From contig CAYMIF010000001.1 of NCBI GenBank assembly GCA_964390375.1, positions 45,460 to 109,459 of the forward strand: a stretch of 64,000 bases of DNA, in the 5' to 3' direction. Below the pieces are notes generated by a model. The model searched no databases, was not told where the DNA came from, and saw only the letters and a list, made by a program, of their open reading frames with translations. The first letter of the stretch is position 1; each line of letters begins with the position of its first letter. The position numbers and the translations under genes are program-made. This document shows, piece after piece, positions 1 through 46,717 of this stretch. The DNA comes from an uncultured Methanosarcinales archaeon. GTDB taxonomy: Archaea > Nanobdellota > Nanobdellia > Woesearchaeales > DSVV01.

Positions 1-375
1 ATTGTTTATTGCAAGGACATGCGACAGGTCCTTGCATGGCATATTGGAAGTAGAATAAGGATGATAAAAGATGCAAGGAAGGTCATTAGAACTACATTAG
101 ATAATGCAGGTCAAAGACCATTGAAGATAATCACAGACGGACTTTTTCAATATGCTGCTGCAATAAAAAAGATAATGGGATGGAAATGGAATATTTACAG
201 AGAAAGGCATATAGTGGATAGTGGAATTGGGAAAAATGCAATCATTGAAGAGGTTAATAGGGAGATAAAAACAAGGATAAGGTGATTTAGAACTTTTCAG
301 AGTATAGAGGGTGCAAAAGCATTTTTTAGTCTCTGGTTTTATCACTTAAACCAGATAAGGTGCGAAGCACCTTAA
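1..375 (+). pseudogene. IS6-family transposase, C-terminal fragment. The 5' end lies outside the window. An in-frame TGA at 286-288 interrupts the conserved C-terminal motif
   Basis: The frame is open from position 1. The translation ...ITDGLFQYAAAIKK...HIVDSGIGKNAIIEEVNREIKTRIR*FRTFQSIEGAKAFFSLWFYHLN resembles the IS6/IS26 transposase C-terminus (TDK..Y..AI ... NN.IE.DH..LKR.IG..GFKS..A...I.G.E). The TGA falls where the conserved G of GFKS is expected. Reading resumes in the same frame to a TAA at 373-375. Confidence 0.45.
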
Positions 376-435
376 TTCTTACTAAGCCAAAAAGTCGAAA
401 GCTTTTTATACTATCTTTTTCAGTGGAACGGTTGT

Positions 436-1146
436 GTGGGCAGGCTATTTTTGTCTGATTTAGGGGATAATAAATTGAAGAATAATAAATCCAGAGCAGT
501 CGGTCTTGTTTTGTTATTGCCGGCAGTAATATTTGTCCTTTCATGCCTTTGCCTTGCACAGCAAGGTGCAGATATCTCTGAAGGTGATACCAGCAGAATC
601 TCTGAAACATCTGCAGGGTCTGATACAGCAGAAGGCGGAAATGTTACACAGCTGAATCTCAGTGTTATCATTTCAACCTCAAAATGGCAGGGCTATTATG
701 GTAATGTCACCGGCGCTTTGGCACTTGGTTCTGGCAGCGATTATTTTTACAATTTTTCAAACAGTGTTGTAGATGCGGTCTACGCTTCTCAGAATGAAAG
801 CTTTGATTTTACAGCAATCGAACAGGCAGCAGCAGCGGATGTAGATACACAATGGGGATATACTACTGCAACAGACAGCGATCAGGCAGCAGACATATTC
901 ACCGGAACAACCTCTGTCGGTGGTGTAAGTGCTCCTTCAGCTGAGCTTGAACCTGTGGGAAACGGCTGGAACTCAACCATATTCGATTGCGGCTCCAATG
1001 ATGACAAGAGCTATTTTGCTTTCGGCGTCAATGTACAGGATGCAGGCAACGGATGCTTCGACGGCACCACATGCCAGTATGAACTGATTGTTCCTGCAGA
1101 TGGTGCCAGCTCTGAGCTATATTATTTTTTCCTTTCAATCGAATAA
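436..1146 (+). CDS. hypothetical secreted or membrane-anchored protein, rich in NxS/T sequons
   Basis: 236-aa ORF. There is an N-terminal hydrophobic segment (AVGLVLLLPAVIFVLSCLCLA) and many N-glycosylation sequons. No recognisable catalytic motifs. Confidence 0.4.
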   Translation: MGRLFLSDLGDNKLKNNKSRAVGLVLLLPAVIFVLSCLCLAQQGADISEGDTSRISETSAGSDTAEGGNVTQLNLSVIISTSKWQGYYGNVTGALALGSGSDYFYNFSNSVVDAVYASQNESFDFTAIEQAAAADVDTQWGYTTATDSDQAADIFTGTTSVGGVSAPSAELEPVGNGWNSTIFDCGSNDDKSYFAFGVNVQDAGNGCFDGTTCQYELIVPADGASSELYYFFLSIE

Positions 1147-1159
1147 TAAAAAAATTTAA

Positions 1160-2995
1160 ATGAGAATGGTCAACAGAAAAAAAAAATTTATGATCCTGTG
1201 CGTATTTCTTCTAGCTGTGCCTTTCTGCCTTTCTTATGACCAGGTGGTTGTCAATTCCCGTGACTGGCAGGATGTATATTCAGGGATGCTCTATTCCAAA
1301 TTAACTGGCTCCTATGGAAGCTATGTGATTGAAGAAGGTCACGGCCAGATGCTTCTGGAATACATGCCAAGAGACCAGGAAGAGGTACTTTTAATTGAAT
1401 CTGCGCAAAATCCTTATATCAGAAATTTCAGGACAAATCTTGAATCAAGGGGCTTTGATGTAGATATGATGGGGGCGAGGGATGACCTGAATCTTGAGGT
1501 GGCAAGACTTGTAAACGTCACTGGATATATCATAATAGATGAGGATTACAGCTACGATGCAGTTTCTGTTGCGCCCTATGCTTCGCTCAAGAGATTTTAT
1601 GTAATATTCTGCGATAACGAAAACCTGGATGAGGTTTTTTCTTTTCTTTCATCTCAAGGCAATCCTGATGTGATACTCTATGGTTATCTTGACCGTGAGG
1701 TTTCTGAAAGGCTCTCTGGATTCAATCCAACCGTTATCAATGAGGGTGATAAGTTCTCAAACAACCTAGAGATCGTCAAGATGTTCTTCGAAGAAAAAAG
1801 TACAGGTCAGCTCATACTGACCGACGGCACATTTCTGGAGCCTCAGTTCTTTGCAGGAAATTATCCTGTGCTTTTTATCGGAAGAAGCAATGTACTGGAT
1901 TCTACTGTGGATTTTGTCAAGGAGTCTGGCGTGAAGTACGGAATGCTTGTCGGTTATGATAATTTTAACAATGCTGTGACACTCAAGAACCGAGCTGACC
2001 TGAAGGTCATCGTGAAGTTCGCAAAAGGATATGACCAGCAGCAGTATGCTCTAGATATATATAAACTTCCTCAAGCGATATATGATGTTGCGATAGTATC
2101 CGCGAATTACAACAGGCTCACAAAGAAGCTTGAGGTCAGCTATGAGAACAAGGTGGATTTCCCAGTCCTTGTGAAATCAAGCCATAACATCCTTTTGAAT
2201 GATGATTCTGTAGGTGTTGTCGGAGATCAGTCTCCTTTCTATCTTGATTCTATGGGCCAGAAGACTGTTGCTTATGATATGGACGTAGGATCAGTAACAG
2301 ACGATGATTTCATCAGTCTTGAATCTGAACTACTTTATGGCGCTGATATACGTGAACTTGAATACAGAAGCGAGTTCAACGTCGAGGTGGCGGTTATTTC
2401 TATAGAGGACAATTCCAGGATAGAACTTGCCGGGCTGGTATACAACAAACCGAAGAAGAGATTTTTTCTAACTGTCAGGAACCCGGGAGAAGATGTTGTG
2501 TATGTCAAGCCTGAGATATCTGATATCCTAATCAATGAAAGAGAGGAGACCCTGACCGCAGAACAGGCTGCGATTGAGCCAGAAGAGAGCTACGAATTTC
2601 GGATCAAGGCAGACCTTTCTCCTGCAGATATCGAAGACAATGAAATCATCAACCTGAATATCTTCTATGGCTCCAGGCCCGATGCCCTGGTACTTTTTTT
2701 AGAGGAGAGTGCCGAGCTTGAGGTCAGCTATATCACTGACGAGTTTTTAATGTGGATATATGCCGGCGCTGGAACTGTTATCGTTGTTTTAGTCCTGTTG
2801 GCTGTTTTAATCTTACTGAGAAGAAAACCAAAGAGAAAAGGCCACTCGGTTCCTGCGCCGAGGCCAGTGCATAGACCTGTTCATCATACTGGATATCATC
2901 AGTCATCACATCATGCTGCTCCGGCGCATCATAAGGTCCAGCAGGTTCATGGGTATTCTGCACATCGATTGCCAAAGCCGCCAGGGCATAGGTGA
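1160..2995 (+). CDS. cell-surface protein with a signal peptide, a C-terminal TM anchor and a His/Pro-rich cytoplasmic tail
   Basis: 611-aa ORF. The N-terminus is MRMVNRKKKFMILCVFLLAVPFCLS (a signal-like sequence). The C-terminus has a hydrophobic helix IYAGAGTVIVVLVLLAVLILL followed by RRKPKRK and a His-rich tail. Confidence 0.5.
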   Translation: MRMVNRKKKFMILCVFLLAVPFCLSYDQVVVNSRDWQDVYSGMLYSKLTGSYGSYVIEEGHGQMLLEYMPRDQEEVLLIESAQNPYIRNFRTNLESRGFDVDMMGARDDLNLEVARLVNVTGYIIIDEDYSYDAVSVAPYASLKRFYVIFCDNENLDEVFSFLSSQGNPDVILYGYLDREVSERLSGFNPTVINEGDKFSNNLEIVKMFFEEKSTGQLILTDGTFLEPQFFAGNYPVLFIGRSNVLDSTVDFVKESGVKYGMLVGYDNFNNAVTLKNRADLKVIVKFAKGYDQQQYALDIYKLPQAIYDVAIVSANYNRLTKKLEVSYENKVDFPVLVKSSHNILLNDDSVGVVGDQSPFYLDSMGQKTVAYDMDVGSVTDDDFISLESELLYGADIRELEYRSEFNVEVAVISIEDNSRIELAGLVYNKPKKRFFLTVRNPGEDVVYVKPEISDILINEREETLTAEQAAIEPEESYEFRIKADLSPADIEDNEIINLNIFYGSRPDALVLFLEESAELEVSYITDEFLMWIYAGAGTVIVVLVLLAVLILLRRKPKRKGHSVPAPRPVHRPVHHTGYHQSSHHAAPAHHKVQQVHGYSAHRLPKPPGHR

Positions 2996-3005
2996 ACCAA
3001 ATCTT

Positions 3006-4046
3006 TCATGTTACCAGATTCTTTGGCTTGTTTTTCAGCCATGCCTCGATGTTGTCAATCATCATGTCGTTTCCTATCCTTGCTGTGACGTCTGTGTTAT
3101 ATGCAATATGAGGCGTTGCGAGAATCTTTGGGTGTGCTTGGATCTTCCTGTAGTATGGATCTGCGGTATCTCCAACATGGATGCTTCCTGTGTCCATAGC
3201 TGCGCCTGCGAGTATTCCCCGGTCCAGTGCTTCAATTATAGCATCTGTGTCGTATATCTTTCTTCCGGTCACTGTTATGAAAAAAGACCCGGTTTTCAAT
3301 GATAAGAAAAATTCGTTGTTTAGAATCTCTTTTGTTGTAGGGTTTGAACTGAGACAGTCCACAACAATATCTGCGGATTTTGCTTTTTGAATAAGATTGT
3401 CTCCTCTCCTGAAATAAGTAACATCCATCTCAAGGGCCTCGGCAATTGCCCCGACCCGCGAACCAACGTTTCCTTTTCCCAAAATAGTCATCTTTTTTCC
3501 TTTTAATCCTATTGTTCTATCTGCGCCTTTTTTTTGGGTCTAGGTGTGTCGTGTTTATATATCTTTGAAACTCACGACGGCTATTATGAAATCCTATCCT
3601 ACTTCACCGATGTTTCACATCGGTTACGCCTGGCCACGAGAATATTTATGAAATAAATATTCTCTCTCATGGCACAGACGGCTAGGATTTCATAATAGCC
3701 ACTCACGACAAAGATTGAGCATCATCCCGATGACCCATTCAGATACTGCGTGTTTGTTGCAGCCAGGAGACCTTGCGAGAAAAACATTGTTTTTTTTTGC
3801 TTTTTGTGCATCGAACCAGCTTGTTCCGACAAAAGGGACCGATATAAACTTGTCCTTGAGTTCCTGGTACTTCTGCTTTAGGCCAAATTTTCCAGAGCAA
3901 ATTATGTCGGCCTCCTGAACCCGCCTGAGCCAGGCATCATGGTCAGGAGCATAATCATCATAAAAAAAAGCTTCTCCCATAGACTTCAGTCTCTCAATCT
4001 GATCAGGCAGGAGGTCCATGTGCTGAGCTATTATTATCTTTTTCAT
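3006..4046 (-). pseudogene. D-isomer-specific 2-hydroxyacid dehydrogenase family gene, interrupted by a MITE insertion (3579-3700) and carrying an apparent 1-nt frameshift in an A8/T8 run (3528-3535)
   Basis: The N-terminal catalytic-domain fragment (ORF 3690..4097, ...FVGTSWFDAQKAKKNNVFLARSPGCNKHAVSEWVIGMMLNLCRE) runs into the element and stops (CREWLL*). The C-terminal NAD-binding fragment (3006..3491) starts MTILGKGNVGSRVG, which is the GxGxxG Rossmann motif. Manual re-joining after removing the element, one TSD copy and one A from the homopolymer gives ...LNLCREFQRYINTTHLDPKKGADRTIGLKGKKMTILGKGNVG. This matches the usual linker between the two domains. Confidence 0.55.
3579..3700 (+). mobile_element. 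122-bp MITE-like element, GGCT-terminus family, variant 1, with a 9-bp TSD
   Basis: Terminal inverted repeats GGCTATTATGAAATCCTA...TAGGATTTCATAATAGCC. Perfect direct repeats ACTCACGAC at 3570-3578 and 3701-3709. The internal core is hairpin(CCGATG..CATCGG)-CGCCTGGCC-hairpin(GAGAATATTTAT..ATAAATATTCTC)-TGGCACAGACG. The element lies inside a coding sequence. Confidence 0.65.
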
Positions 4047-4109
4047 CGTGAAATCAGGAAGGAATCTGATATATTTAAATCTTCTTTTTGAAATCAAATC
4101 AAGATTCTG

Positions 4110-7100
4110 TCATCTTATCTCTACATAGAATACTATCTCTTCAGTAAATCCCTTGTATGAATTCAGCTTTTCTGGTATGCGTATTTCGAATCCGTATGTG
4201 CCATAGCTTCCTGTCTGACCTGAGTTGTAGCTTGTGTAGAATATCAGGTCCTCCTCTTCGGCTATGTCAAACTCGTCATCAAGCGAATCGCTTGTGTCCC
4301 ACAGGATTCCTGTCTTGAAGCTGCTTGAGTTCTCAGTCGAATTTATCATCGAGACATTGTAGATCGGAAGGCCGTATAGTGTGATGTTCTGCATCTCCTT
4401 TGGAATGGTTGAATCAATGCTCCAGGTGGCATTTATCGAATCAGACCTGTTGGATATGTTCAGGACGATATCCATGTCCAGGAAATCCTGCGACGCTGTT
4501 GTTCCGTCCTTTTTCCTCCCTATTGCCTGCAGGTCGTTTACGCTGAAGACAGAATCTGCGTCTGCAGCGTATACATTGAGTATCTGGCCTTCTGTCATGT
4601 TCTTGAGGGTTGTCAATATGTATCCCAGCGCGAGCCTTCCTGTTGCGTTTCCGTAGTAATAGTTGTAGGATTCTTTCTGAATTCTGAACCATGTACTGTA
4701 AGTATTCTTATTTCCTGAGGTGTCATTTGCATATACTGTTATGTTGTAACTTCCTGATGAATTAGCAAAATCGAAAGTTGCATTGTATACATCATCAAGG
4801 TCATTGTCAGTCATATTGACTATCAAGGTGTTTTTATTCCATGTGATGTTAGCATAAACATTGTCAATCCCTGTATTATCTGTGACATTTGCTGTTATTT
4901 CGATTATGGAAAATATAATGAATTCATCTTCCTCAGGCCAAACATCTTTGATCAAGGGTATTGATGAGTCGAGAGTAAATTGCCATAACGATGAGTTTAC
5001 ATCGCTTAAATCATCACTTGTTCGAGTGAACCAGTGATAGGTATTATCTGATAGATCTGCATCATCTCTTATAGAGTCTGTTGTTCGTGATGAATTCAGT
5101 ATTCTTGTCTCATCAATGCGGCCATTGAAGTAGTTCGGACCAGCTGAACCGAGAGAATCTTGATTAACTGTTGCTCCGATACCGCCTTCGTCAGCATGCG
5201 AGCTGATTGAGGAATACGAGGCTGTTGTAGTGTTTTTCAGTAGACCATCCAAGAATATTGACATATTTCCTCCATCAAATATTGCTGTTATGAGGTGCCA
5301 TCCTGAAGTATCTGTGTAGTTGGTCGTGATCAGAGTCTTTGTTCCTCCTCCAGATGTTGCGAATTCAAGGATTGTTGAGTTCAGGCGAAGGGCGAAACCG
5401 TCAGATCTTCCTCCTTCTTCGTATATCGTCTGTATGCCAGCAAGCGCGTCGGGCTTTATCCAGATCTGGACAGTCTTGTTGTCAAATGGGCTGTTGAAGA
5501 AGCTTTCGTTCAGAAGCCAATATTGAGATACCCCGTCATAATCGAAGGCTCCTGCGAATTTTCCTCCATTCTCTATGAATGTCGGACAGTTTGTTGTGCA
5601 GGTCCTGTCGTGGTTTTCAGCTGAGGATGCGAAATTCTTAACTAATGTTGAGTTTTCGCCATGTTCTGATCTGTTATCAAAATGCCAGAGTGCTTCTGTT
5701 TCTGCAGTCATATTTAATACCGGCGCATCCCATGTATATGAAATCAATGTGTTATTAGATATATCACAGAGCCTGAAGAGAAGATCATCAGAAGATTCTG
5801 CTGCATCTGAACTGAATATATCCAGACAAAGTAGCTCGGTGTCGTTGTCCTCTACTCTTGCCTGAAGGCCGACAGAAGATGAGGCTATCCTTGAGTTGTT
5901 TTCAGGATTCACTAAAAATGCTGCTGGTGGCTGGTCTTCCTGTGTCTGTGCTGTATCATTTATCCAAAGCTCATTTAGATTGTTATATATGTCTGATGTC
6001 CTTGTACCTATCTCATATATTGTATTTGGAGCCAAGTCTGAGATGTTTGTGTAGTTTTGGCTTAGATTTGAATAGAAGCTTCCGTTGATCCATATCTCTG
6101 TGCGGTAGAAATCAGAATCAGATGGGTTTGTCCAGTTCCAGATTATCCAGGTCTTTGATGTCTTTGTTTCATCAAGATTTGTCACGCTTGCAGGAGGGGT
6201 ACGGTCTTCATAGTATGTGACATTGAAGTAGAATGCATCCCAGTATATCTCGTATTGTCCTGGTCCGCCGCTTCCAGAGTGGACCAATTCTGATTTTGCA
6301 ATAGCACTTGTAGCGTTTGATCCGAAGAAAACCCCGCATGTCCAATCTTCATCTGATGTTATGTCGACGCAGGTTATCCCAGAAGGTTCTGTTGTACCTG
6401 GGCAGGTGTTTGTGACTGCTGTATAGTTTGCTCCCTGATCAGCGTCAACTGATATATCACATGTCATTATGTCCGAAGTGTCAGACCACCATTTATAACA
6501 GAACTGAACCGATTCGACCAGTATACAATTCTCTATTGTGTTATTTGATGTGTTTGTCCTGATTCCTGCCCAGTATCCTGATTTTTCCACAGGATGGTTC
6601 TCAACTATAATGTCGTCGTAGAAAAGTGCGGGTCCTGGGTATTTCCTATCACATGCATCACCCCATGTACCTGCTGCAGTTGCAGCGTCCTCAGCTGAAC
6701 AGTTGTTGATTGTCATCTGAAGGCTTAATGGAAGCTCTGGAACGATGTCTATCCACCATGTCTCGTTGCCTGGATTGTAGTTCTCAGTACCATGGAAATA
6801 TGCTGTTATATTGTTCATTGAGGTATTGTTGAACAGGATGTTTTCCTGGTAAGGAGATGTCCCGTTGTATAGAAGCGATCCGTTCTGGTATATTGTTATG
6901 TTTCCGTCTCCTTTCAGAAGAGTTGCCTGGATTGTGACAAATGTGTTGTTTTCGGCTGTTATGTTAGACCTGTATCCATTGAGCGTCAGCTCAATTGATG
7001 AATCTGCTCTTGAAATATTCAAGGTAGCCTGAATCTCGGATGATGTGTAGTTCTGCGTCTGGGTTGAATTACAGATGTATAGGTATTCAGCAACATCCAA

Positions 7101-10100
7101 TGTCTGTACGTCCGGATTTGCGACAGGACTTGCGTTTCTGTACAGCAAAGGTGTAATCTGGGAATCTGCACCTTTGCATGATATATTTGTCTGATTCGAG
7201 TATGTAGTGTTCCATCCTGGCTGAGCTGAAAGAGTCAGATTCGGGTCTGCTCTCGCTATCGTGAAATACCATACATCTGTCATGTTAATATTACCTGCTG
7301 AATCATTTGCATATGACTTCCAGTAGAACGAGCCTGCCGGAAAGACCTGCTGGAAATTGTATACATTGAGTGTTATCTCATTCATTGTATAGTTTGTTGG
7401 AACTTTGGAGAAGTTGCTTTCGAAAAGAACATCTTCTACTTTCACATCATCTGTCCAAGTTATATTGAATGAACTGTTCATCGAAGGCTTGAATATTGAG
7501 ACTATGTCGGTTTTATTGGCTGACCATTTTGGTGGATAATCCGGGATTTCCTGTGTTGTTGCATTGACCCACCAGGTCTCTGAATCTGAAGTGTAATTCT
7601 GGTTTCCATTGTATAGTGCAGTTATGTTGTAAAACCCCTCTGTATTGAAAAAGGTCATATTTTCTGAGGGGAGTGTGCTATTGAAGATAAGAGTATTGTT
7701 GTTGTAGACCTGCAATATTCCGGACCCAGATATGAAATCAGCTGAAATATTGAGTGATGTTCCAAGTTGAATCGTGCGATTGTTTCTTGATCCATTCAGA
7801 TACAGTGCGACAACTCCTGCTGCTTTTGTTACATTCAACAATGTCCAGGACGAATTATATGTAAAATTCTGAGTCTGGGATATATTGCATGTGTAGTTGT
7901 AGCTGCCTGCACCGAGTGTTTGGATGTCAGAAGTACCTGAAATCAGTGTTGAGTTCCGATAAAGGGCAGGAGTTATCTGAGTCGTATTGAGTGAACAGGT
8001 AATATTTGTCTGTGTGCCATATGTAGCCGTATCTGTCGGATCTGCTGATATTGTCAGGCCGGGATCTGCCCGCAAGATCGTGAAATACCATTTATCTGAG
8101 AGGTTCCATTGTCCTATTGAGTCGTTGGCATGAGAGGTCCAGTAGAATGAGCCGGCTGGGAGTATCGAGGTGTAGTTGAAGATATTTGCTGACTGGTTTG
8201 TCATAGTATAATTTTGCTTTGTTCCTGAGAAATTGCTTTCAAATAATGACGTGTTCAGGCCATAATAATCTTCCCAGGTGATGTTGAATGTGCTATCGGT
8301 CGTCTCGGAATAGTAGATGGGCGTGAATGATGAATTTCCTGACCAATATGGAGGATAGTCTGGAGGCGGGCTGTAGGAGACATTGAAGTATAATACATCC
8401 CAAATCACGTCATAATTTCCCGGGCCAGCAGAGCCACTATGCTGTATCTCTGATTTTGCGATCGCTCCTGTCGGAGTTTCTCCAAAGAAATTACCGCATT
8501 GCCAGTTTTCCGAGGCAGTCACGTTAACACATGTCATGACTGCTGGCTCAGCAGTTCCAGGGCATGCAGCAGATACTGCAGTGTAGCTGTTTCCATAGTC
8601 TGAATCTATGCTTATATCGCAATTCTGTGTTCTTGTGGTAGCTGCCCACCATTTGTAGCATATCGTGACACTGTCAATGCTATCGCAGTCTGTCACTGAT
8701 GAATTTGTCGAGTTTATTCTTACTCCTGCCCAGGTTGTTCCTGATTTTGATATCTTGTGTATCTCCCTTGCTGCGTCTTCATAATAAAGCGTTTCCCCTG
8801 GATAAGCATTGTCACATGCGACATTCCATGAACCTGAAGCAGATGCCAGTTCCTGGGCTACGCATTTTTGGATTCTCATCTCTCCAAATGCAGGATCGTC
8901 TGGTGTAAGAAGGAATGTGTAGTTTTGGCCGGGTTTTATGTCCATTATCTTGACCCAGCTGCCAAAGCATTTTTGAGCAGTAAAATTCCATTCTTTGCAT
9001 TTATAGAGCTCTGTTCCCTTTGCTGTGGCTGTGACTGTCGCATTCGTGAAATTCAGCATTGCCGGATCAATCGCATATGATTGGATATAATCCTCTATCT
9101 CTACATCCTCTATACCAAGGTTGATAGCTCCTTTATACTCTATGCTTCTGAAATCTATCTGCTTGACAGCAGATGTCAGATTTCTTAATCTAATTGAATC
9201 TATCTTATTTTGGTCTTCTGGATTAGTCTGTCTCTTGATAAAGCTCTCTTTCTTTTCCAGAGGCAACTTGAAGTACGCTGGGATGCTTTTTGCAAGACCA
9301 TCATATTCCAATGATACCTGGTGTTTTAGTATGAATGTCCCTTCAGTTATGTTTTCAGAGTGTATTTTGAAATCTGATGTGATTTGTTCTTTTGGCCTTA
9401 TCTTATCAGGATCTGAATATTTTCTTTCATCCCTGTATAATACGCTGCTCATGTTGTCATATGTCATTATAGAATCCTCATAGTAGAGTATCAATGTTAT
9501 ATTGCTTATATTAAGTTCCTTTGGTATGCTGCTCTTCAGGATGTTGTCCTGCTTTGTGAGTTCGGTCCTATAGTAGAAATTATCCTCACTGAATAATACT
9601 ATCTCTTGAGTCCTGTTCAAAAGCTTTCTTGATAAGTCTGGTGTCACTTCTATCAGCTTCTCCAGGTCTTTTTCGACTATCGTAATCTTAAATGTGCTTT
9701 TAGGTTCTGTATCATCATCTGTGTCTTGGCTTTCCTGTCTTTCATTATCTTCTGAATCTATTTTGATTTCGGGATCATACTTCTCTTGGGTATCAATGAC
9801 TTGTTCTGGTCCCTGCTGCACCTCAGCCACTATGTTGTCCTTCTGAATCTTTGGTTTTTCCTGTTCTTTGTTTCTCCTGTCTATTATCTTGTCTATCCAG
9901 TCGACTGTGTAATATCTTCCTCCGTGATTCAAGATGAATTCGATGCTGCTAATGTTCGCCCTGATCGGCATTTCTGCATAAATCTTATATCCTTCCTTTC
10001 TAGGGTTCAGAAGGTATATTACCTGTCCATCGCTGGCTGTTCCCGAGAATGTGAGATCTTTGTATGAGAAATGACCATCCAAATATATGTTAATCGATGT

Positions 10101-10238
10101 CTTATAATCATCTATCTCAAGCACAACCAGCTCTTTTGGTTCTGATTGTTCAGATAATGAGAAAGATGATATGAGGATGATTACTGTAGCTAACAGTATG
10201 CTTAATAATACTATTTTCAATCCTCTTTTCTTATCCAT
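4110..10238 (-). CDS. giant (2042 aa) surface glycoprotein with a signal peptide, two tandem ~500-aa repeats and a LamG/concanavalin-like domain
   Basis: One uninterrupted ORF. The N-terminus is MDKKRGLKIVLLSILLATVIILISS (a signal-like sequence). NxS/T sequons are extremely dense. There is an internal duplication (DYPPYWSGNSSF...YWTSHANDS... and DYPPKWSANKTD...YWKSYANDS...). A LamG-like segment reads FDYDGVSQYWLL...GWHLITAIFDGG...FNGRIDETRILN. Confidence 0.7.
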   Translation of the reverse strand: MDKKRGLKIVLLSILLATVIILISSFSLSEQSEPKELVVLEIDDYKTSINIYLDGHFSYKDLTFSGTASDGQVIYLLNPRKEGYKIYAEMPIRANISSIEFILNHGGRYYTVDWIDKIIDRRNKEQEKPKIQKDNIVAEVQQGPEQVIDTQEKYDPEIKIDSEDNERQESQDTDDDTEPKSTFKITIVEKDLEKLIEVTPDLSRKLLNRTQEIVLFSEDNFYYRTELTKQDNILKSSIPKELNISNITLILYYEDSIMTYDNMSSVLYRDERKYSDPDKIRPKEQITSDFKIHSENITEGTFILKHQVSLEYDGLAKSIPAYFKLPLEKKESFIKRQTNPEDQNKIDSIRLRNLTSAVKQIDFRSIEYKGAINLGIEDVEIEDYIQSYAIDPAMLNFTNATVTATAKGTELYKCKEWNFTAQKCFGSWVKIMDIKPGQNYTFLLTPDDPAFGEMRIQKCVAQELASASGSWNVACDNAYPGETLYYEDAAREIHKISKSGTTWAGVRINSTNSSVTDCDSIDSVTICYKWWAATTRTQNCDISIDSDYGNSYTAVSAACPGTAEPAVMTCVNVTASENWQCGNFFGETPTGAIAKSEIQHSGSAGPGNYDVIWDVLYFNVSYSPPPDYPPYWSGNSSFTPIYYSETTDSTFNITWEDYYGLNTSLFESNFSGTKQNYTMTNQSANIFNYTSILPAGSFYWTSHANDSIGQWNLSDKWYFTILRADPGLTISADPTDTATYGTQTNITCSLNTTQITPALYRNSTLISGTSDIQTLGAGSYNYTCNISQTQNFTYNSSWTLLNVTKAAGVVALYLNGSRNNRTIQLGTSLNISADFISGSGILQVYNNNTLIFNSTLPSENMTFFNTEGFYNITALYNGNQNYTSDSETWWVNATTQEIPDYPPKWSANKTDIVSIFKPSMNSSFNITWTDDVKVEDVLFESNFSKVPTNYTMNEITLNVYNFQQVFPAGSFYWKSYANDSAGNINMTDVWYFTIARADPNLTLSAQPGWNTTYSNQTNISCKGADSQITPLLYRNASPVANPDVQTLDVAEYLYICNSTQTQNYTSSEIQATLNISRADSSIELTLNGYRSNITAENNTFVTIQATLLKGDGNITIYQNGSLLYNGTSPYQENILFNNTSMNNITAYFHGTENYNPGNETWWIDIVPELPLSLQMTINNCSAEDAATAAGTWGDACDRKYPGPALFYDDIIVENHPVEKSGYWAGIRTNTSNNTIENCILVESVQFCYKWWSDTSDIMTCDISVDADQGANYTAVTNTCPGTTEPSGITCVDITSDEDWTCGVFFGSNATSAIAKSELVHSGSGGPGQYEIYWDAFYFNVTYYEDRTPPASVTNLDETKTSKTWIIWNWTNPSDSDFYRTEIWINGSFYSNLSQNYTNISDLAPNTIYEIGTRTSDIYNNLNELWINDTAQTQEDQPPAAFLVNPENNSRIASSSVGLQARVEDNDTELLCLDIFSSDAAESSDDLLFRLCDISNNTLISYTWDAPVLNMTAETEALWHFDNRSEHGENSTLVKNFASSAENHDRTCTTNCPTFIENGGKFAGAFDYDGVSQYWLLNESFFNSPFDNKTVQIWIKPDALAGIQTIYEEGGRSDGFALRLNSTILEFATSGGGTKTLITTNYTDTSGWHLITAIFDGGNMSIFLDGLLKNTTTASYSSISSHADEGGIGATVNQDSLGSAGPNYFNGRIDETRILNSSRTTDSIRDDADLSDNTYHWFTRTSDDLSDVNSSLWQFTLDSSIPLIKDVWPEEDEFIIFSIIEITANVTDNTGIDNVYANITWNKNTLIVNMTDNDLDDVYNATFDFANSSGSYNITVYANDTSGNKNTYSTWFRIQKESYNYYYGNATGRLALGYILTTLKNMTEGQILNVYAADADSVFSVNDLQAIGRKKDGTTASQDFLDMDIVLNISNRSDSINATWSIDSTIPKEMQNITLYGLPIYNVSMINSTENSSSFKTGILWDTSDSLDDEFDIAEEEDLIFYTSYNSGQTGSYGTYGFEIRIPEKLNSYKGFTEEIVFYVEIR

Positions 10239-10446
10239 TTTTCAAATACGGAAGATTAAGCTTCCATAGGGCCCTCTTTGATGTTTTTATCTGCTTTATT
10301 ATTCCCCTGCTGCTTAGCAATCTGATATGTTTCTTGACAGTTATCCACGATATCCCTGCAGCTTTCGCTATCTCATTTATGCTCAAGGGCCTGACATTCT
10401 GCCCCAGAATTATTATTATCTTTTCGTCATACAATGAGAATGCCAT
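10231..10446 (-). CDS. small winged-helix DNA-binding protein (putative transcriptional regulator)
   Basis: 71 aa. The motif LSINEIAKAAGISWITVKKHIRLLSSRGII is HTH-like. It lies directly upstream of, and overlaps by 8 nt, the giant surface-protein gene on the same strand. Confidence 0.4.
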   Translation of the reverse strand: MAFSLYDEKIIIILGQNVRPLSINEIAKAAGISWITVKKHIRLLSSRGIIKQIKTSKRALWKLNLPYLKNG

Positions 10447-10454
10447 CTGCTGTT

Positions 10455-10715
10455 CTATCCTTTCTTGAATTCAAGGAGCAGCCTGGGCCTGTCCCTGAGG
10501 ATGTTCTCTGGCTGCACCAGGGTGAACACAACCCTGTCCTTTGCGGGGTTGAGTTCCATCTCTTTTGCGAATTTTGCCGGGATCCGCAGGTTGTACTGAC
10601 GGCCATCGAAGAATATCTTGGCTTCCTTGACACGGACCCTCTCTTTTTGCATAAGAAGCTTCTCTATCTCTGAAAAATCTTTTTTTGACATGTTTTTTTT
10701 TGTTTTTTTATCCAT
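10455..10715 (-). CDS. AbrB/SpoVT/MazE-like swapped-hairpin domain protein
   Basis: 86 aa. KIFFDGRQYNLRIPAKFAKEMELNPAKDRVVFTL resembles the AbrB-type beta-hairpin DNA-binding fold. It is the first gene of the apparent wHTH-giant protein operon. Confidence 0.4.
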   Translation of the reverse strand: MDKKTKKNMSKKDFSEIEKLLMQKERVRVKEAKIFFDGRQYNLRIPAKFAKEMELNPAKDRVVFTLVQPENILRDRPRLLLEFKKG

Positions 10716-10745
10716 TTTCGTTTATAATATTTTAATTTTTTTATA

Positions 10746-10801
10746 AAAAATAGGACGAATTAGTATATAAATGCTTTGTTTTTTACCAAAAATAGGACGA
10801 A
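10746..10801. promoter_or_regulatory. promoter region with two direct repeats of AAAAATAGGACGAA and TATA-like boxes, upstream of the AbrB-wHTH-giant-protein operon
   Basis: Exact 14-bp direct repeats at 10746-10759 and 10788-10801. TATATAA/TTTATAA motifs lie between them. The region is 30-90 bp upstream of the 10715 start. Confidence 0.35.
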
Positions 10802-10807
10802 AAATTG

Positions 10808-11749
10808 TTAACTTTTGTCTTCTTCAGAAGAATATGTGATATTTTTTTCTGAGCCTTTGTCTTTCTTCTTACTCGACAGCCAGGAAAGCGTCGTGATCAG
10901 AATAAGTCCAGCAGCTATTGATGCAAGAATAGAATAGCTTATCCTGACTGTCGCTATCATGTCCTCGCGGGTCAGTTCATCTGCTATTGCGGATGGTTCC
11001 TGGATCTCGGGGCTTGAGTCTTTTGGAATGTAGTGTTCTTGCGGATAATAATACCTGTCTATCTTAAAAAATGCTTTTTTTGCATCAATCTGTTCCAGGG
11101 TCATGATTATCTCGAATTCCTCATCATCATCGATATCAAGGTTCTTGGATTCTCCTATGCTGAATATCATCTTCTGCTGGTTCGGAATCATCAGCACCTC
11201 TGCCTGATTTTCAGACATGTTCAATATAATGAAGCTTATCTTTGAGAGATCAATCCAGTCGTGGCTGAGGACAATCTCGAATGAACTGCCTTCCTGTGCA
11301 CTGATTCGTTCTTTAGGTATTTTTGCGGATCCTTTTGATTTGCTCTCCTCCTTTTTTGCAGGGATGTCGTTGTATCTATCATCAGTAGGGTTTTTATCCA
11401 GATATTCCTGCTTTTCATTTTCTTCGAAAGGCAAAATAAGATCATAGTCTATTACTCCGCTGTCAAGATCTAATTCCTGTGTATGGTTCTCTACATACAT
11501 TATGACAGAATCGCTGTTCTGCCTGCATGAGAATGTGTAGAAATAATAATTCTTCCAAGGCCATTCTCTGCCTGTCCATGTCTGGTATGTGAAATTATAG
11601 TATGGGTAATGGATATAAAGCGTTGTGTTGTCCTTTACAGGTGCGCTGTCATTGTAGAATATCCTGCCGCGAAGGGTGCAGAAGTCAGCTGATGCATAAG
11701 AAAGCAGGGCTAAGAGCATGATTGTGAAAAGCAATGTGATCTTTTTCAT
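10808..11749 (-). CDS. hypothetical surface protein with a signal peptide and a C-terminal TM anchor
   Basis: ORF 10808..11797. The likely start is MKKITLLFTIMLLALLSYASA. The C-terminal segment IAAGLILITTLSWLSSKKKDKG is hydrophobic and then basic. The start could instead be at 11797. Confidence 0.45.
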   Translation of the reverse strand: MKKITLLFTIMLLALLSYASADFCTLRGRIFYNDSAPVKDNTTLYIHYPYYNFTYQTWTGREWPWKNYYFYTFSCRQNSDSVIMYVENHTQELDLDSGVIDYDLILPFEENEKQEYLDKNPTDDRYNDIPAKKEESKSKGSAKIPKERISAQEGSSFEIVLSHDWIDLSKISFIILNMSENQAEVLMIPNQQKMIFSIGESKNLDIDDDEEFEIIMTLEQIDAKKAFFKIDRYYYPQEHYIPKDSSPEIQEPSAIADELTREDMIATVRISYSILASIAAGLILITTLSWLSSKKKDKGSEKNITYSSEEDKS

Positions 11750-11768
11750 TTTTCTATTAATTTTCATT

Positions 11769-13289
11769 TCAAGGACCTCTGTCATATTCCCATTCATAAT
11801 CTTTATCTGTTATTCCGAAGATGAGACCTTCCCCTGGCTGCAGACAGTCAAAATCGCCGGTCCAACCGAATGGTTCAGCAAATTTCATGACGCCGTCAAA
11901 TCCCGGATCCGGCACCTTGGCAGGATTGTAGATCATCATAGTATCTCCTGTCGTTGAGTTGGGGGAGAGGAGGCTGCTAAGATTGCATTTTTTGAATGGC
12001 GAATTCCAGCCGATGCTGTTTAGCTCGACCTCTCCTGGAATCTGGGTAGAATGATAGATAGGGATGGATATGTTTCCTGTCGGGACAGTTCCTACGAATG
12101 TCAGGGTATAGTTCTGGGAGACTATTCCTAGCCAGTATGCCTTGGACACATTAATCTCCGATATCGCGCCAGACCAATAAGTCGGGCCTGCGAACCTTAT
12201 GCTTCCGTCAAATCCAGGGTCAGGAAGCTTGAATGGGTTGTATGTCATTATGGTGTCACCTGGCTTAGACCATCTGAACACGTTGTTCAGGCTCTTGTTC
12301 TTAGGTATTACCGGAAATGAAATTATGTTGAACTCAATCTCTCCTGGAATCTGGGTAGAATTGTATATCTTCATGTCAACCTTTCCTATTGTATCGTTGC
12401 CTATGAATTCAATGTTGTTCATTGTTCCTGAAACCTGATAGAATCTAGTCTTTGCTTTTGAAGCATTGTAATCTATCCACATCTGTCCTGTGAGATTGGA
12501 GATGTTGCTATTGTTATAGTAAAATCCAGCAGAAAGATTGTCTGTTATGTATATCGAATAGTTGTCAGCACCAATGTCCTGCCATGTGATTATTATACTC
12601 TTGTTGTCGTCAGCAAGCGAAGCTATTGGATGGAGCTTGTCAATCTCCAGGCATGTCGGTGTCTGAAAAGTATAGTTGAGCGAGCCTGCAACAGGGACCG
12701 GCAGCATCATCTGATAATCTGCCTGCCTGCTGTTGAATGAGGTCGTGTTTTTTTGGACCAGGGTTACGAAAACGATGTCTGTGCCCTTCTTGAGTATACC
12801 AAGACTATAATTCACTCCAGCTCCGTATGTGAATGTTGAATATAATGATATGTTAGACCCGTCTATCAGGAAAGTGTGGTTATGTATGAAAATGCTTGTT
12901 CCGGAATATGGTGAATATGCTGGAACACCAATAAGATCGTCTATGTCTGAAGGCGATGCAGGAACCAAGTCCGAGAGATTCGTTATATTCGATGAGGTCG
13001 CGAAGAGCTCCTCATAGCCGCATGTACTGATTCCAAGGTCTATATGTGTTATGTTCTGAGAAGAATAGTTGAGCAGAGCATAGTCTTTTGGATAGCTGGA
13101 AGAGATGTTTCCATAGAATCCCTTCCAGTAATATTCCTCCTGAGACTGCACGTCCACATGGCTTACGTTTCCTCCTGTTGCCGGAACCATGCCTGTCGGA
13201 GTCTTGAGAAAGCTGAGAAAGATAAGCAACGGAAATAATAATATAAGGACGGCTGTCAGGATAAATAAGATCCTCTCATCTTTTTCCAT
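11769..13289 (-). CDS. hypothetical secreted protein with an internal ~85-aa duplication
   Basis: 506 aa with an N-terminal TM or signal sequence. The repeat units are ...IYNSTQIPGEIEFN...YNPFKLPDPGFDGSIRFAGP... and ...IYHSTQIPGEVELN...YNPAKVPDPGFDGVMKFAEP.... Confidence 0.5.
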   Translation of the reverse strand: MEKDERILFILTAVLILLFPLLIFLSFLKTPTGMVPATGGNVSHVDVQSQEEYYWKGFYGNISSSYPKDYALLNYSSQNITHIDLGISTCGYEELFATSSNITNLSDLVPASPSDIDDLIGVPAYSPYSGTSIFIHNHTFLIDGSNISLYSTFTYGAGVNYSLGILKKGTDIVFVTLVQKNTTSFNSRQADYQMMLPVPVAGSLNYTFQTPTCLEIDKLHPIASLADDNKSIIITWQDIGADNYSIYITDNLSAGFYYNNSNISNLTGQMWIDYNASKAKTRFYQVSGTMNNIEFIGNDTIGKVDMKIYNSTQIPGEIEFNIISFPVIPKNKSLNNVFRWSKPGDTIMTYNPFKLPDPGFDGSIRFAGPTYWSGAISEINVSKAYWLGIVSQNYTLTFVGTVPTGNISIPIYHSTQIPGEVELNSIGWNSPFKKCNLSSLLSPNSTTGDTMMIYNPAKVPDPGFDGVMKFAEPFGWTGDFDCLQPGEGLIFGITDKDYEWEYDRGP

Positions 13290-30297: not shown

Positions 30298-31029
30298 ATG
30301 CTCAAGGCAGATTTCCACATACATATATCTGAAGATCCTTATGACCGGGATGCTGCGCGTTATTCAGGAAAGGAACTCATAGACCGTGCTGCAGAACTTG
30401 GATATGATGTCTTGTCAATCACCATGCATTCCACTTATTTTGAAGATTTTCGGCTGACAAAATATGCCCGCAAGAAAGGTATACTTCTGATACCTGGTAT
30501 TGAACTTCGAGTTTCTGACCGGCATGTGCTTATAATCAATCCAGATCCTGATCAGCTCTATCATGTCAAGAAGCTATCTGATCTGAGGAAAATCAAGGGA
30601 ACCGGGTGCCTGATCATGCCAGCTCATCCTTATCTTTATTTTGGAAAAGACCGTGAAAGAGAGCTTGAGGTGAATGCAGAACTGTTCGATGCCATCGAAT
30701 TCTGCCATTTCCATCTCGGACCTATTGATTTTAATAAAAAGACCGAGAATTTCTCAAGAAGGCATAAATTACCAATGTTTGGATCCTCTGACACACATCT
30801 TAAATGCCAGTTCGGAACCACTTATACGATGATCGATTCAAAAAAAGATACTGATTCAGTGATATCTGCTGTGAAAAAAGGAAAAGTCAAGGTGGTCTCT
30901 CCTGATCTTAAAATAACAATCTTCCTTAGAATATTCCTGCGGTTCAGCATCTCTATGCTGAGAACCATTGTGTTTGGGAAGAAGAAACAAACTGAGAGAT
31001 ATTCTGTTATAAAAAAGGGCTTTGTGTAA
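30298..31029 (+). CDS. PHP-domain metal-dependent phosphoesterase. Its last codons and stop lie inside a MITE terminus
   Basis: DFHIHIS, MPAHP and GSSDTH are PHP His/Asp ligands. The stop codon sits within the inverted repeat of the element at 31018-31196. Confidence 0.6.
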   Translation: MLKADFHIHISEDPYDRDAARYSGKELIDRAAELGYDVLSITMHSTYFEDFRLTKYARKKGILLIPGIELRVSDRHVLIINPDPDQLYHVKKLSDLRKIKGTGCLIMPAHPYLYFGKDRERELEVNAELFDAIEFCHFHLGPIDFNKKTENFSRRHKLPMFGSSDTHLKCQFGTTYTMIDSKKDTDSVISAVKKGKVKVVSPDLKITIFLRIFLRFSISMLRTIVFGKKKQTERYSVIKKGFV

Positions 31030-31196
31030 AAAGTACTACTTCGCTTACTCCCTAAGCTGCGCCTGGCCCTACGCCTTGGCCCGCAGACCTGCCATGTAGG
31101 GCGTGCGCCAACCATAGATGGTTGGCTTAGCCCAACTGAGAATATTGCCTAAAGATATATATTCTCGTGGCACAGACGTACTTTTTACACAAAGCC
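31018..31196 (+). mobile_element. 179-bp MITE-like element, GGCT-terminus family, variant 2
   Basis: A perfect 19-bp inverted repeat GGCTTTGTGTAAAAAGTAC / GTACTTTTTACACAAAGCC. It is flanked by ATAAAAAAG at 31009-31017 and 31197-31205. It shares the core CGCCTGGCC...TGGCACAGACG with variant 1 but has a longer internal structured module. Confidence 0.6.
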
Positions 31197-31205
31197 ATAA
31201 AAAAG

Positions 31206-31327
31206 GGCTATTATGAAATCCTATACTACTACGTTTTTACTGCGTAAAAACTTCGCCTGGCCCCGAGAATATTTATTTCATAAATATTCTCTCTCGTGGC
31301 ACAGACGCATAGGATTTCATAATAGCC
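31206..31327 (+). mobile_element. 122-bp MITE-like element, variant 1, directly abutting the variant-2 copy
   Basis: Termini GGCTATTATGAAATCCTATAC...ATAGGATTTCATAATAGCC. Flanked by ATAAAAAAG at 31197-31205 and 31328-31336. It is nearly identical to the reverse-oriented copy at 50627-50748. Confidence 0.65.
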
Positions 31328-31373
31328 ATAAAAAAGTAAAAATTTATATATCTTAAAACACATTTATTTTATC

Positions 31374-31992: not shown

Positions 31993-32106
31993 GGCTCCAT
32001 CTAATAAATACTACTCCGCTTGCTGCGCAAGCTTCGCCTGGCCACGGGAAGCTTTATTGCATAAACCTTCCCTCCCTTGGCACAGACGCATTTATTGGAT
32101 GAAGCC
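31993..32106 (+). mobile_element. 114-bp MITE-like element, variant 3
   Basis: Termini GGCTCCATCTAATAAATAC / GCATTTATTGGATGAAGCC (16 of 19 bases match). Perfect 9-bp direct repeats CACAGAAGA at 31984-31992 and 32107-32115. The core is hairpin(GCTTGC..GCAAGC)-CGCCTGGCC-hairpin(GGGAAGCTTTAT..ATAAACCTTCCC)-TGGCACAGACG. Confidence 0.55.
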
Positions 32107-32232: not shown

Positions 32233-32336
32233 GCCCCCGTAGCATAGTAGCTATTGCGGCAGACTTGTATCATTTTGAATCATAGATTCGTTTTTTAGAA
32301 ATCTGCAGGTCGTGGGTGCAAATCCCACCGGGGGCT
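32233..32336 (+). tRNA. intron-containing tRNA, anticodon read as TGT (Thr), with a ~31-nt intron after position 37
   Basis: Acceptor stem GCCCCCG/CGGGGGC. Anticodon stem GCAGA/TCTGC. Loop CTTGTA followed by intervening sequence 32270-32300. T arm GTGGG-TGCAAAT-CCCAC. Discriminator T. No encoded CCA. The isotype call depends on where the intron is placed. Confidence 0.7.
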
Positions 32337-32349
32337 TGCTATCTTCTTG

Positions 32350-35300
32350 CTATGCCTTCTTTAAAGATTCATATACCTTGTGCTTATCCTTTGCATTGCT
32401 GAGATATAAAGCATCCTTTAAATGGGTCTTTGACCAGCCCTTCTTCAGAAGATTTTCTGCCAATTTCCTGTGATCCTTGGTCTTGGTGTTGAAAAGGAAG
32501 ATTATTGGCTTTATGTTCTCCAGCTCCTGGGTATATCTTTTCACTGCGTCCTTTGTGAAGTAATGATGCTTGAGTATCCTTTCAGAGCCGTGAGAATGCA
32601 GGATGTTGGTGTATGCATAGTATTTGCTGAACTCCGAGTATATCTGGCTTGCAGCCTGGGGGCTGAGCCCTGCTTTTGCTATCTCTTTTCCAAGCATCTT
32701 CGGCGAACAGTGGACCCTGAGCAGGCTGAAGGCAACATCGTCCGGGTCCTTTTGGACCATGAGCTCCTGGATCATCTCAGAAAGAACCTTTGAAAGCCCC
32801 TTGCTGTAATATTCCTTGTATCCTTCATCTATCAATATGGTGTATGATATGAGGTTGATGTCATATGAATGATGTATCAGATAGTTTATCAGATGATGAG
32901 GGTCTGCCTTCCTGTCCATGCCTTTGTCAAGCTCTTTTTTTATCCTCTTCTGCTGGTCCTTGTATCTTTTTTGTCTTAATTTTTCCGGCGTGAACCTGGA
33001 ATGATGGAGGAAGTTTGCTATCTCAGACTTGTCAAAAAGCCAGATGTGATACTTGTGGAACCCAAACTCGTTGTTGGCATGAAGCTCGCTTATGAATGCA
33101 TAGAGCATGTATATGTGCAGCCAGATGTAGACTGCTATCTTCATCAGATCCAGGATGTAGTCAAAAAGCAGGTAGTTGAGAGTGAGATCGGGTATGACCT
33201 TGCTGTAAAGTATGATTGAATGATAGATGAAATTCTTCAGGAAGAACAGTGTGTAGACGAAGACCAGCAGTATCGCTATCGTGACAGTCTTTATCTCGAT
33301 GATCTTTTTATGCTTCCTTGTCACAAGATATGCCCATATCCCGACAGTCGCTGAAATCAATGAGAGTGCAAGGATGTTGAGATTGAAGCTAATACTGCTG
33401 AAGTACATGCTGAAATAGAACAGGATTGCTATTGCAGGGATGACATGAGTTATGATATCCATCAGGTGGTTGTGCTTTCTTATCATGTGGGCCACTATGA
33501 ATACAAGCAGGATGCCTGCAATTATCATCCCCGGGATGTCAGGCCTTATCGCTTCTGGCAGTGTCTTTATTACAATCTCGTTTCCGACCACAAGATTGCT
33601 GTTGATCTTCTTTATCTGAAATATCGGCGTGAGTATGAAGAAGACCAGGGATACTGCAAATGATATCAGTGTCCATCTTGAGAACGAAAGCCTCTTTGGC
33701 TCTACCGTGTCCTGGGCATTGCGGTAGAATATGTGTGAGTAGATCTTGAACGGTATGTAGAACAGGATGAGGATCGCGATCATATTCATTACATAAATGA
33801 GGTATGTTGCCAGAGGGTCTGCGGTGCTCTGCATAATGAGGTCGTAGACAGACGGAGACTGGGCAGTAAAGCCCTGTGCGTATATCTCTGGCTGAGGCAT
33901 GAATGGCAGGAGGCTTGAGAGTATGAAGATTATGAATCCAAGGCCGATTATGTAGAATATCCTGATGGAGATGGATACCCAATATGTTCCCTCGTCCTGG
34001 AGCATGACGATTATGTCGCGGACAAAATCCTCGATAGCGTTGAATGCTTCAGTAAGCGAACTGAGGGTGAGTTTTCTGTATCTTATGACATGGTAGATCA
34101 TGAATATCAGGGCGACTGAAATGAGGATTATGGAATCAGTCGCTATGGAGAATCCTTCGATTATCATCTGGAAGAAGATGAAGAACGTGATTATGATGAT
34201 TATGATGGTCTTTATGATCCTGAATGGCGAATAATTGCCTTTGAGAAGGTTGGATGCGAACGAACTCTTGTCCTTGTTCCTTATTATGAGCCTGTATGAC
34301 AATATAGAGATTATGACAAACAATGAGATCAGGGCGATGCCTGTGTAATCCTGGGTCATGTCCATCAGATACAGGATGGTCTTTACAGCCCTTCCGAAGA
34401 ATCCGTACTTTCCGAAGAGGCCTATGAATATCTCCTCAAGCGCCGGCAGCCACCAAAGAGAGCAGAATATGAGGATCAGGGCAGTCGTTATCCTGCTCCT
34501 CTTTCCGAAGAGACGCTCTGAGATGTTGGTCTTTAGTATGAGGATGAATGCCAGCAGAAGCGACATCATCTTCTTGACAAAGTCCAGGTCTCCGAGCATG
34601 CCCATGATGTCGAGGATGCTCAAGGCCAGGAGAAAGATGAAATAGAGCAGGATGAATTCCCTTATGCTCCAGACCAAGGGCTTTAATATAGGGTGCTTAT
34701 TTGCGTGGTCTTTTAGCTTTCCTATGTTTGTTGTGTTGACCAGGACTATTATAACTATGAATACAAGGAAGAAATATGCAAGGGTGAGGTAGTCCAGTAG
34801 CTTGGGAGGCTCGCCGAATCTTGTGACAATGCTTGCAACCAGGGCAGTGACTGTCACCTCTTCGTCACAGTTTATGTCCTCGACCTGCTTTATTTTAAGC
34901 TTCAGCTCCATCTCATCGTCAATCTCCTCGAAATGCACGAATATCTCTGGGTCAGCTTTTGTTATCGTGAAATTGAAGTTCGCGTCAATGACCTGCTCTG
35001 CATATTCATGGGTTAGCATCTCGACTAAGCATTTGGGGATGTGGATTGGCAAACCTACTCCTACAGCTTTCTTGTTGTCGTCCCTGGGCTTTATCTTGAC
35101 TGTGGCCTCAGCAGAGCCGTTGTCATAGATGACTGTTGTGGTGTTGGTCTGGATAGCCTGCTTTGCGAGCTCCTTTGCCTTGTATATCTCGAAATCATCA
35201 AGATAATCATCTATCCTGCTCTGCTCCTTTATCATGAGCTCATAACTGATCCTTCCTATCTCTTCCTCAGTCATGGACTTATTTATCGTGTAGTTGGTGT

Positions 35301-43291: not shown

Positions 43292-43405
43292 TAATTAAAG
43301 AGACTGTCGGATGTCTTTCGCAATATGAAAAACATAAAATTATTTATATTAGCTTTTGCACAATCCTTTACAACTAGCGCTTAGAAAAAAGAGGATAATG
43401 CTATA

Positions 43406-45043: not shown

Positions 45044-45047
45044 GGAG

Positions 45048-45446: not shown

Positions 45447-45460
45447 TAATAAGAAAAAAA

Positions 45461-46498: not shown

Positions 46499-46540
46499 GT
46501 TGGTATCACCTTTCTGTTTTTAATTATTTTTGTTTCCATG

Positions 46541-46660
46541 GATTAGGGGATCCGCCAACAGGCGAATCCCAGAACCCTTGGGGATGATCCTCGTGATTCG
46601 TGAAGACCGCTAAACCAGTATAATGACCGGCTTAATATGGGTTTAGCATGATTTTTTGAA
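46541..46660. ncRNA. candidate small structured RNA or regulatory structure. Strand unresolved
   Basis: Nested inverted repeats GGGATCCGCC/GGCGAATCCC and GCTAAACC/GGTTTAGC. An oligo-T run follows on the plus strand (GATTTTTTG). An AT-rich TATA-like box lies at 46519-46530 upstream. Confidence 0.25.
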
Positions 46661-46717
46661 AAAAATAAAGAAAAAAATGAAATCTTTGCTGAATCTTCTG
46701 AAACACAGAATATACTC

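Follow-up and report, generated by a model that had tools for sequence, protein, structure and literature searches.

Positions 3006 to 4046 of the window (by which we mean the whole 64-kb stretch of DNA analyzed here) hold, on the minus strand, a gene of the D-2-hydroxyacid dehydrogenase family that is interrupted by a MITE and that also contains a homopolymer run at which the reading frame changes. The locus therefore raises the question of whether the gene has been inactivated twice or whether the MITE is its only real disruption. We examined the reconstruction of the gene, the mobile element and its relatives, the reliability of the run length, and the probable age of the inactivation.

Anatomy and reconstruction of the dehydrogenase gene

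The 302 codons of the gene run from an ATG at 4046 to 4044 to a stop codon at 3008 to 3006. The N-terminal part (codons 1 to 112; 3710 to 4046, minus strand) starts with MKKIII, and the ORF as present continues to position 3690, where it ends in ...LNLCRE-WLL-stop with a stop codon supplied by the MITE end; NCBI and Logan both have a record of the 118-aa product. On the other side of the element, a coding remnant comprising residues 116 to 127 (FQRYINTTHLDP; 3536 to 3569, minus strand) reads in the same frame as the N-terminal part if the MITE is taken out. It is followed by the T8 run (A8 on the coding strand; 3528 to 3535), which is the site of a +1 frameshift, and then by the C-terminal part (residues 130 to 302; 3006 to 3527, minus strand), which contains the sequence GKGNVG and the conserved His. 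A free-standing C-terminal ORF of 161 aa (3006 to 3491, minus strand) begins with MTILGKGNVGSRVG at an ATG at position 3491, and its product is also on record in NCBI and in Logan. Upstream of the gene, we recognized by eye the archaeal TATA box-like sequence TTTAAATA (4072 to 4079, minus strand), which is separated from the ATG by 25 nt, a distance that would fit a leaderless transcript. The scan of the locus for promoter and terminator consensus sequences applied a bacterial model to an archaeal host and is uninformative.

Excision of the MITE together with one copy of its target-site duplication (131 bp) restores the sequence ...CREFQRYINTT... and leaves the two halves of the gene in different frames, which bears out the +1 frame problem that the sequence-only reading had described for precise excision. 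The excised sequence reads ...LNLCRE-FQRYINTTHLDPKK, and the closest homologue, P0002, reads ...INLFRE-FPKYINTTDIDVKE. After excision, the N-terminal frame meets a stop (RRR*), and the C-terminal frame opens past a stop located just before TQKKGADRT. Stops at 3517 to 3519 and at 3540 to 3542 limit the change of frame to positions 3520 to 3539, a 20-nt interval (TCTGCGCC-TTTTTTTT-GGGT) that includes the T8 run. With A7 at the run, the codons would read CCA AAA AAA GGC (P-K-K-G). Removal of the 131 bp and of one T gives a 302-aa protein that is above the curated thresholds for both Pfam domains (PF02826, 83.3 bits against a cutoff of 25.1; PF00389, 34.2 bits against a cutoff of 24.6) and that aligns without gaps through both lesions with P0001 (69%) and P0002 (67%); in the lesion region, PKKGADRTIGLKGKK stands against VKEGAPRTKGLHDKT in the homologues, with no gap. 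The proposal that one base less in the A8/T8 run restores a continuous protein is thus upheld by the stops that confine the frameshift and by the gapless alignment of the repaired product. A7 is the most economical ancestral run length; A10 would also restore the frame, yet less economically, because it adds a residue that is absent from the closest homologues.

The repaired protein matches D-3-phosphoglycerate dehydrogenases in the PDB in a single stretch (residues 66 to 284; best match, 3k5p; E = 4e-21). In the alignment, the three glycines of GKGNVG (the GxGxxG motif; residues 146 to 151) are invariant, as is H269 in TPHI. The canonical catalytic Arg (RG in 3k5p) aligns to GR at residues 216 and 217 (window positions ~3396 to 3401, minus strand) with an offset of one position, and most close homologues of the repaired protein have T, S, or E at this position; the CPR/DPANN dehydrogenase subfamily may not use the classical triad. 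In comparison with D-3-phosphoglycerate dehydrogenase and the D-isomer-specific 2-hydroxyacid dehydrogenases (3k5p), both Pfam domains, the GKGNVG sequence, and the His in TPHI are common features, whereas the gene described here is a short form of ~300 aa that lacks the regulatory domain, and the canonical Arg is not conserved in its closest homologues. The dehydrogenase family is common to Woesearchaeota and Patescibacteria. The best 120 homologues of the repaired protein are all single chains of ~300 aa, and all but two of them have both Pfam domains according to precomputed annotation. Orthologues with the two domains as separate genes, which the sequence-only reading had named as a refutation, are therefore not the normal state.

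Alignment with P0002 places the insertion point inside codon 116, ~10 residues inside the Pfam model of the NAD-binding domain and 30 residues upstream of GKGNVG. The sequence-only reading had the MITE splitting a 2-hydroxyacid dehydrogenase gene between its domains; the insertion is indeed inside the gene, but it does not fall exactly on the domain border. Transposition was considered as the cause of the frameshift and was rejected, since the run is located 35 to 43 nt from the insertion point, outside the repaired 9-nt gap. We also rejected the MITE as an intron-like element that is removed from the RNA, because conserved residues 116 to 129 would be missing or mistranslated after any removal that keeps the frame.

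The MITE and its relatives in the window

The MITE inside the gene (3579 to 3700) is 122 bp long and has 21-nt inverted ends (3579 to 3599 and 3680 to 3700; sequence, GGCTATTATGAAATCCTAKCC) that are identical at 20 of 21 positions. The 9-bp direct repeat ACTCACGAC is found on either side of it without a mismatch, the left copy of the target-site duplication being located at 3570 to 3578 and the right copy at 3701 to 3709, where, on the minus strand, it corresponds to codons 113 to 115 and the first base of codon 116. The ends and the perfect repeat confirm the MITE and the 9-bp duplication recognized in the sequence-only reading. Two internal hairpins (3606 to 3624 and 3638 to 3664) are present, and the element folds as an end stem with these two hairpins (z = -10.5). 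The ORFs that cross it are at most 40 aa long, and it has no ORF of its own and no transposase gene; read on the minus strand, its end yields a TGA stop at 3690 to 3692. An Rfam search of the element matched no family.

The end sequence of the family, also given as GGCTATTATGAAATCC, flanks the MITE copies and occurs 10 times in the window, in the form of five inward-facing pairs (0.00 expected from shuffled sequence). All five family copies have 9-bp duplications, three of which are perfect and two of which match at 8 of 9 positions. In addition to the copy in the dehydrogenase gene, these are (i) a copy at 31206 to 31327 that belongs to a subfamily with a different first hairpin and has the duplication ATAAAAAAG; (ii) a copy at 47924 to 48046 that is 91% identical to the in-gene copy (duplication, 8/9); (iii) a copy in the opposite orientation at 50627 to 50748 that is 98.4% identical to the one at 31206 to 31327 (duplication, 8/9); and (iv) a long variant of 279 bp with the same ends at 59630 to 59908 (duplication, TCTGTCATG). 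These other four copies sit between long ORFs, which fits selection against insertions into genes and a dispensable target at the dehydrogenase locus.

The inner core of the family consists of CGCCTGGCC, a 12-bp hairpin, and TGGCACAGACG. Elements of both subfamilies fold as an end stem with two hairpins (z of about -10.5), and, besides the hairpin of the core, a second hairpin shows a complete compensatory swap between the subfamilies. The first hairpins at 3606 to 3624 and at 31233 to 31251 are wholly different (ACCGATGT/ACATCGGT versus the ACGTTTTTAC/GTAAAAAC type), and both fold. Two further MITEs have the family inner core between different GGCT-type ends, each with a perfect 9-bp duplication: one at 31018 to 31196, the ends of which (GGCTTTGTGTAAAAAGTAC) are IS903-like, and one at 31993 to 32106, with the ends GGCTYCATCYAATAAAT. 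The former begins with GGCTTTGT, as IS903 does. The latter is located ~130 nt from a tRNA gene (32233 to 32336, plus strand; ~104 nt) that probably has an intron and that was found by Rfam (54.2 bits) and missed by ARAGORN. The core-bearing MITEs in the 64 kb therefore number seven (~109 per Mb) and have three different end sequences of the IS903 type. One core between three end types suggests either modular exchange or mobilization by several transposases. The same 9-bp site was hit twice at one position, where the element at 31018 to 31196 adjoins that at 31206 to 31327 and ATAAAAAAG occurs three times (31009 to 31017, 31197 to 31205, and 31328 to 31336). In the long variant, the interior at 59770 to 59888 is 95% identical to 31060 to 31178, the interior of the 179-bp element at 31018 to 31196, which has different ends.

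End sequences in other genomes and a probable parent element

We scanned for the 18-nt end in one genome per species. End pairs spaced 160 to 290 bp apart were found in many MAGs labeled Woesearchaeota, Nanoarchaeota, or Methanosarcinales, mostly with perfect 9-bp duplications. The lone, unpaired matches seen in bacteria are in keeping with the ~35 chance matches estimated for the size of the database, and a scan of viral contigs for the ends gave two unpaired, chance-like matches, apparently inside coding sequence. When the five copies of the window were compared by blastn with 52 end-sharing loci, the ends alone matched and the interiors were unrelated; the inner core (CGCCTGGCC/TGGCACAGACG) was absent from all 72 fetched loci. 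The MITEs of the other archaeal MAGs (L001 to L052; for example, L004, L013, L014, L031, and L047) have a different inner motif, roughly GCGTTCCCGTAGGGA..CCCCTCGCGACG, that is kept across genomes, and the rest of their interiors differ. Several of the MAGs labeled Methanosarcinales contain many MITE copies, often at contig ends.

In one of the loci, L040, ends of the window type flank a 1,023-bp element with the duplication CTTAATTTA and a single transposase gene of about 305 aa. This transposase scores 35.2 bits with Pfam DDE_Tnp_1 (cutoff, 23), and its best NCBIfam model is IS5_2 ("IS5 family transposase") at 133.7 bits, which is just under the cutoff of 140. Its relatives run into the hundreds, and the contigs that carry them are mostly ~1.0 to 1.3 kb long, as expected of a repeated IS. 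A search of the 64-kb window for a matching transposase found none.

In the IS5 family, the IS903 group is marked by ends that start with GGCT, by duplications of 9 bp, and by a length of about 1 kb. The MITE in the gene is assigned to the IS903 type because of its GGCT ends, its 9-bp duplication, and its ~1-kb relative L040, and the single DDE_Tnp_1 transposase of L040 is a further likeness to IS903 and its group. The differences are that the copy in the gene has only 122 bp and no transposase, that its interior is unrelated to L040 or to the other end-sharing MITEs, and that the host is a DPANN archaeon, not a bacterium. Judged by its sequence, the 122-bp element is a MITE, a non-autonomous IS derivative, probably of the IS903 type (IS5 family).

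Redder, She, and Garrett reportedly described the MITEs SM1 to SM4 of Sulfolobus solfataricus in 2001. SM1 to SM4 are also short, non-autonomous, multicopy, and archaeal and share their ends with resident IS elements, whereas their IS families, ends, and duplication lengths differ from those found here and there is presumably no sequence relationship. In a census of prokaryotic MITEs (Nucleic Acids Res. 2024; PMC11602168), a Woesearchaea genome was among those with the highest archaeal MITE densities (105 per Mb), and most MITEs were intergenic. The density in the window (7 in 64 kb, ~109 per Mb) is similar to that in the census (PMC11602168), whereas the copy studied here is inside a gene.

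Host, genomic setting, and search for the empty site

The best named relatives of the RadA encoded at 45461 to 46498 are from Woesearchaeota and Nanoarchaeota, and genes for MCM, ScpB, and other archaeal proteins are present in the window. The host is, by its predicted genes, a Woesearchaeota-type (DPANN) archaeon, and its genome is presumably small. The neighborhood of the dehydrogenase gene (1160 to 13289) includes a gene for a 2,042-aa protein (4110 to 10238), and most of its genes have no Pfam match; four of the five neighbors that were looked up are singleton clusters. This stretch looks strain specific. A second giant ORF, of 2,757 aa, is found at 32350 to 40623. According to the longer Logan contig L053, the start of the window (1 to 285; 3979 to 4683 in L053) falls within a gene whose product is an IS6-family transposase (Pfam DDE_Tnp_IS240), and a Peptidase_C25 protein of 1,114 aa is encoded further upstream of it.

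If the element were absent, the junction would be expected to read ...TTGAAACTCACGAC|AAAGATTGAG..., a join that can also be written as ...TTGAAACTCACGAC directly followed by AAAGATTGAGC.... A search of 5.8 billion proteins returned a best homologue that is 69% identical and no close orthologue, and exact look-up found neither the repaired protein nor the product of the empty site on record. Both dehydrogenase fragments are singleton clusters (NCBI contig and Logan). JGI metagenome contigs scanned with the repaired protein gave a best match of 62% and no empty site, and the flanking genes led to no orthologous locus, the neighbors also being singleton clusters. The comparison with an orthologous locus that had been suggested for finding the empty site thus returned none among the 5.8 billion proteins, the JGI contigs, and the neighboring genes. 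A related strain, represented by a contig of JGI sample 3300034152 (L057), is 96.8% identical at the nucleotide level over 4.5 kb around radA (window positions 43328 to 47831). It loses synteny at window position 47831, ~90 bp before the MITE at 47924, and the other side is only ~74% identical; nothing on this contig covers the dehydrogenase locus.

Length of the homopolymer run and reality of the insertion

Two Logan contigs of run SRR7048225 cover the lesions. The first, L053, which was reached via a neighboring 611-aa protein, equals window positions 1 to 3606 at 100% identity and reaches through the T8 run and the left duplication 28 nt into the MITE. The second, L054, equals positions 3672 to 6522 at 100% identity and covers the right junction; its final 28 nt are common to the copy at 59880 to 59907, which means that the contig breaks in a repeat. 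Both contigs stop 28 to 29 nt within the MITE. The length of the T8 run is thus given by two consensus assemblies, produced by different assemblers and possibly from the same reads. A literature search for the accession SRR7048225 found no paper.

Counting the one at 3528 to 3535, A/T runs of 7 or more bases number 39 in the window, and each was tested for whether the addition or removal of a base merges two long ORFs. Such a frameshift signature was seen in none of the 38 other runs. Open frames of 600 nt or more contain 24 of these, among them an A10 and two T9 runs, one of the latter within the dehydrogenase gene itself. By this measure, the assembly is not prone to homopolymer errors. Since the second assembly agrees and none of the 38 other runs is frameshifted, the T8 lesion is probably real, and we are fairly confident in regarding it as a genuine second lesion. 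Of the two options left open in the sequence-only reading, a gene inactivated twice or an error in the run from sequencing or assembly, the double lesion is favored, given the independent T8 at 100% identity and the absence of shifts at the 38 other runs.

A competing explanation has the MITE as the sole disruption, with T7 in the actual genome and an eighth T at 3528 to 3535 that was introduced by sequencing or assembly. It deserves to be weighed, since errors in length are most frequent at homopolymer runs, the two agreeing assemblies may derive from the same reads, and the repaired dehydrogenase looks otherwise intact. We nevertheless consider it unlikely, in view of the T8 that a different assembler yields at 100% identity and of the 24 other such A/T runs (7 bases or longer) in intact frames of at least 600 nt (including the T9 in the same gene and the A10), none of which is disrupted. 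Doubt could also be directed at the insertion itself, which would be an assembly artifact if a repeat copy had been misjoined into the gene: MITE copies are repeats in which short-read contigs break, and the Logan contigs do end 28 to 29 nt inside the element. Both junctions, each consisting of unique flank and MITE end, were however assembled independently, and a misjoin would not yield a perfect 9-bp duplication, the removal of which restores the conserved CREFQRYINTT, so that an artifact of this kind is hardly credible.

It is similarly improbable, if slightly less so, that the locus is still usefully expressed, whether by cooperation of the two pieces, by translation of the 161-aa fragment from the ATG at 3491, or by slippage at A8 that restores the frame. 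The N-terminal and C-terminal ORFs are in one genomic frame, as 131 and 1 add up to 132, but such agreement has a one-in-three chance of occurring, and the frame through the MITE hits a stop three codons in. Both ORFs are called as genes, and the TATA-like box is retained upstream of the original start; on the other hand, residues 116 to 141, including the nearly invariant I120 and N121, would be lost or misread, the best 120 homologues are single chains without exception, and slippage at the run cannot bypass the MITE.

Age and order of the inactivating events

Thirteen homologues agree at 59 alignment columns, and at these the repaired protein differs only once (C158A); intact homologues treated in the same way by leave-one-out have 1 to 8 differences at invariant columns. 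The limited decay, the perfect duplication, and the nearly perfect ends point to a recent inactivation and indicate that the dehydrogenase locus is a young pseudogene. Recent activity of the MITE family, as claimed in the sequence-only reading, is likewise supported by the perfect duplication, the 20/21 ends, the undecayed host gene, and the two copies that are 98.4% identical.

We consider it likely, on the joint reading of these results, that an IS903-type MITE in codon 116 and a separate slippage from A7 to A8 have produced a young pseudogene in a Woesearchaeota-type host. A transposase encoded elsewhere in the genome would have mobilized the non-autonomous MITE, which would have transposed into codon 116 and duplicated 9 bp of the target. 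The inserted MITE end places a TGA three codons downstream, so that translation from the original start would give a 118-residue stub. Extension of the coding A7 to A8, 35 bases downstream of the insertion, was most likely due to replication slippage. Either lesion alone would inactivate the gene, and whichever came second would have been neutral: the MITE may have come first and the run may then have slipped unselected, or a gene that was already frameshifted may have been a safe landing site. With two lesions, the gene would stay broken even after precise excision of the MITE, and presumably no useful product remains from the locus.

Implications

In annotation, the 118-aa and 161-aa ORFs, now recorded as two proteins, should be joined into a single entry marked as a pseudogene. 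The event at the dehydrogenase locus is otherwise an ordinary one, in line with the known behavior of MITEs and homopolymer runs, and the locus points to the IS5 family, IS903 type, as the probable type of the parent element. That selection keeps the inner core of the family, for example for a function in RNA or regulation or in the recruitment of transposase, and that the core is not a passive passenger, is a rather doubtful possibility; if it were true, the hit in the dehydrogenase gene would be one visible cost of an ongoing burst that is reshaping a reduced symbiont genome. Gene loss is central to the DPANN lifestyle, and the locus would be a clean, datable example of how an uncultured archaeon of this group has lost a metabolic gene to a mobile element.
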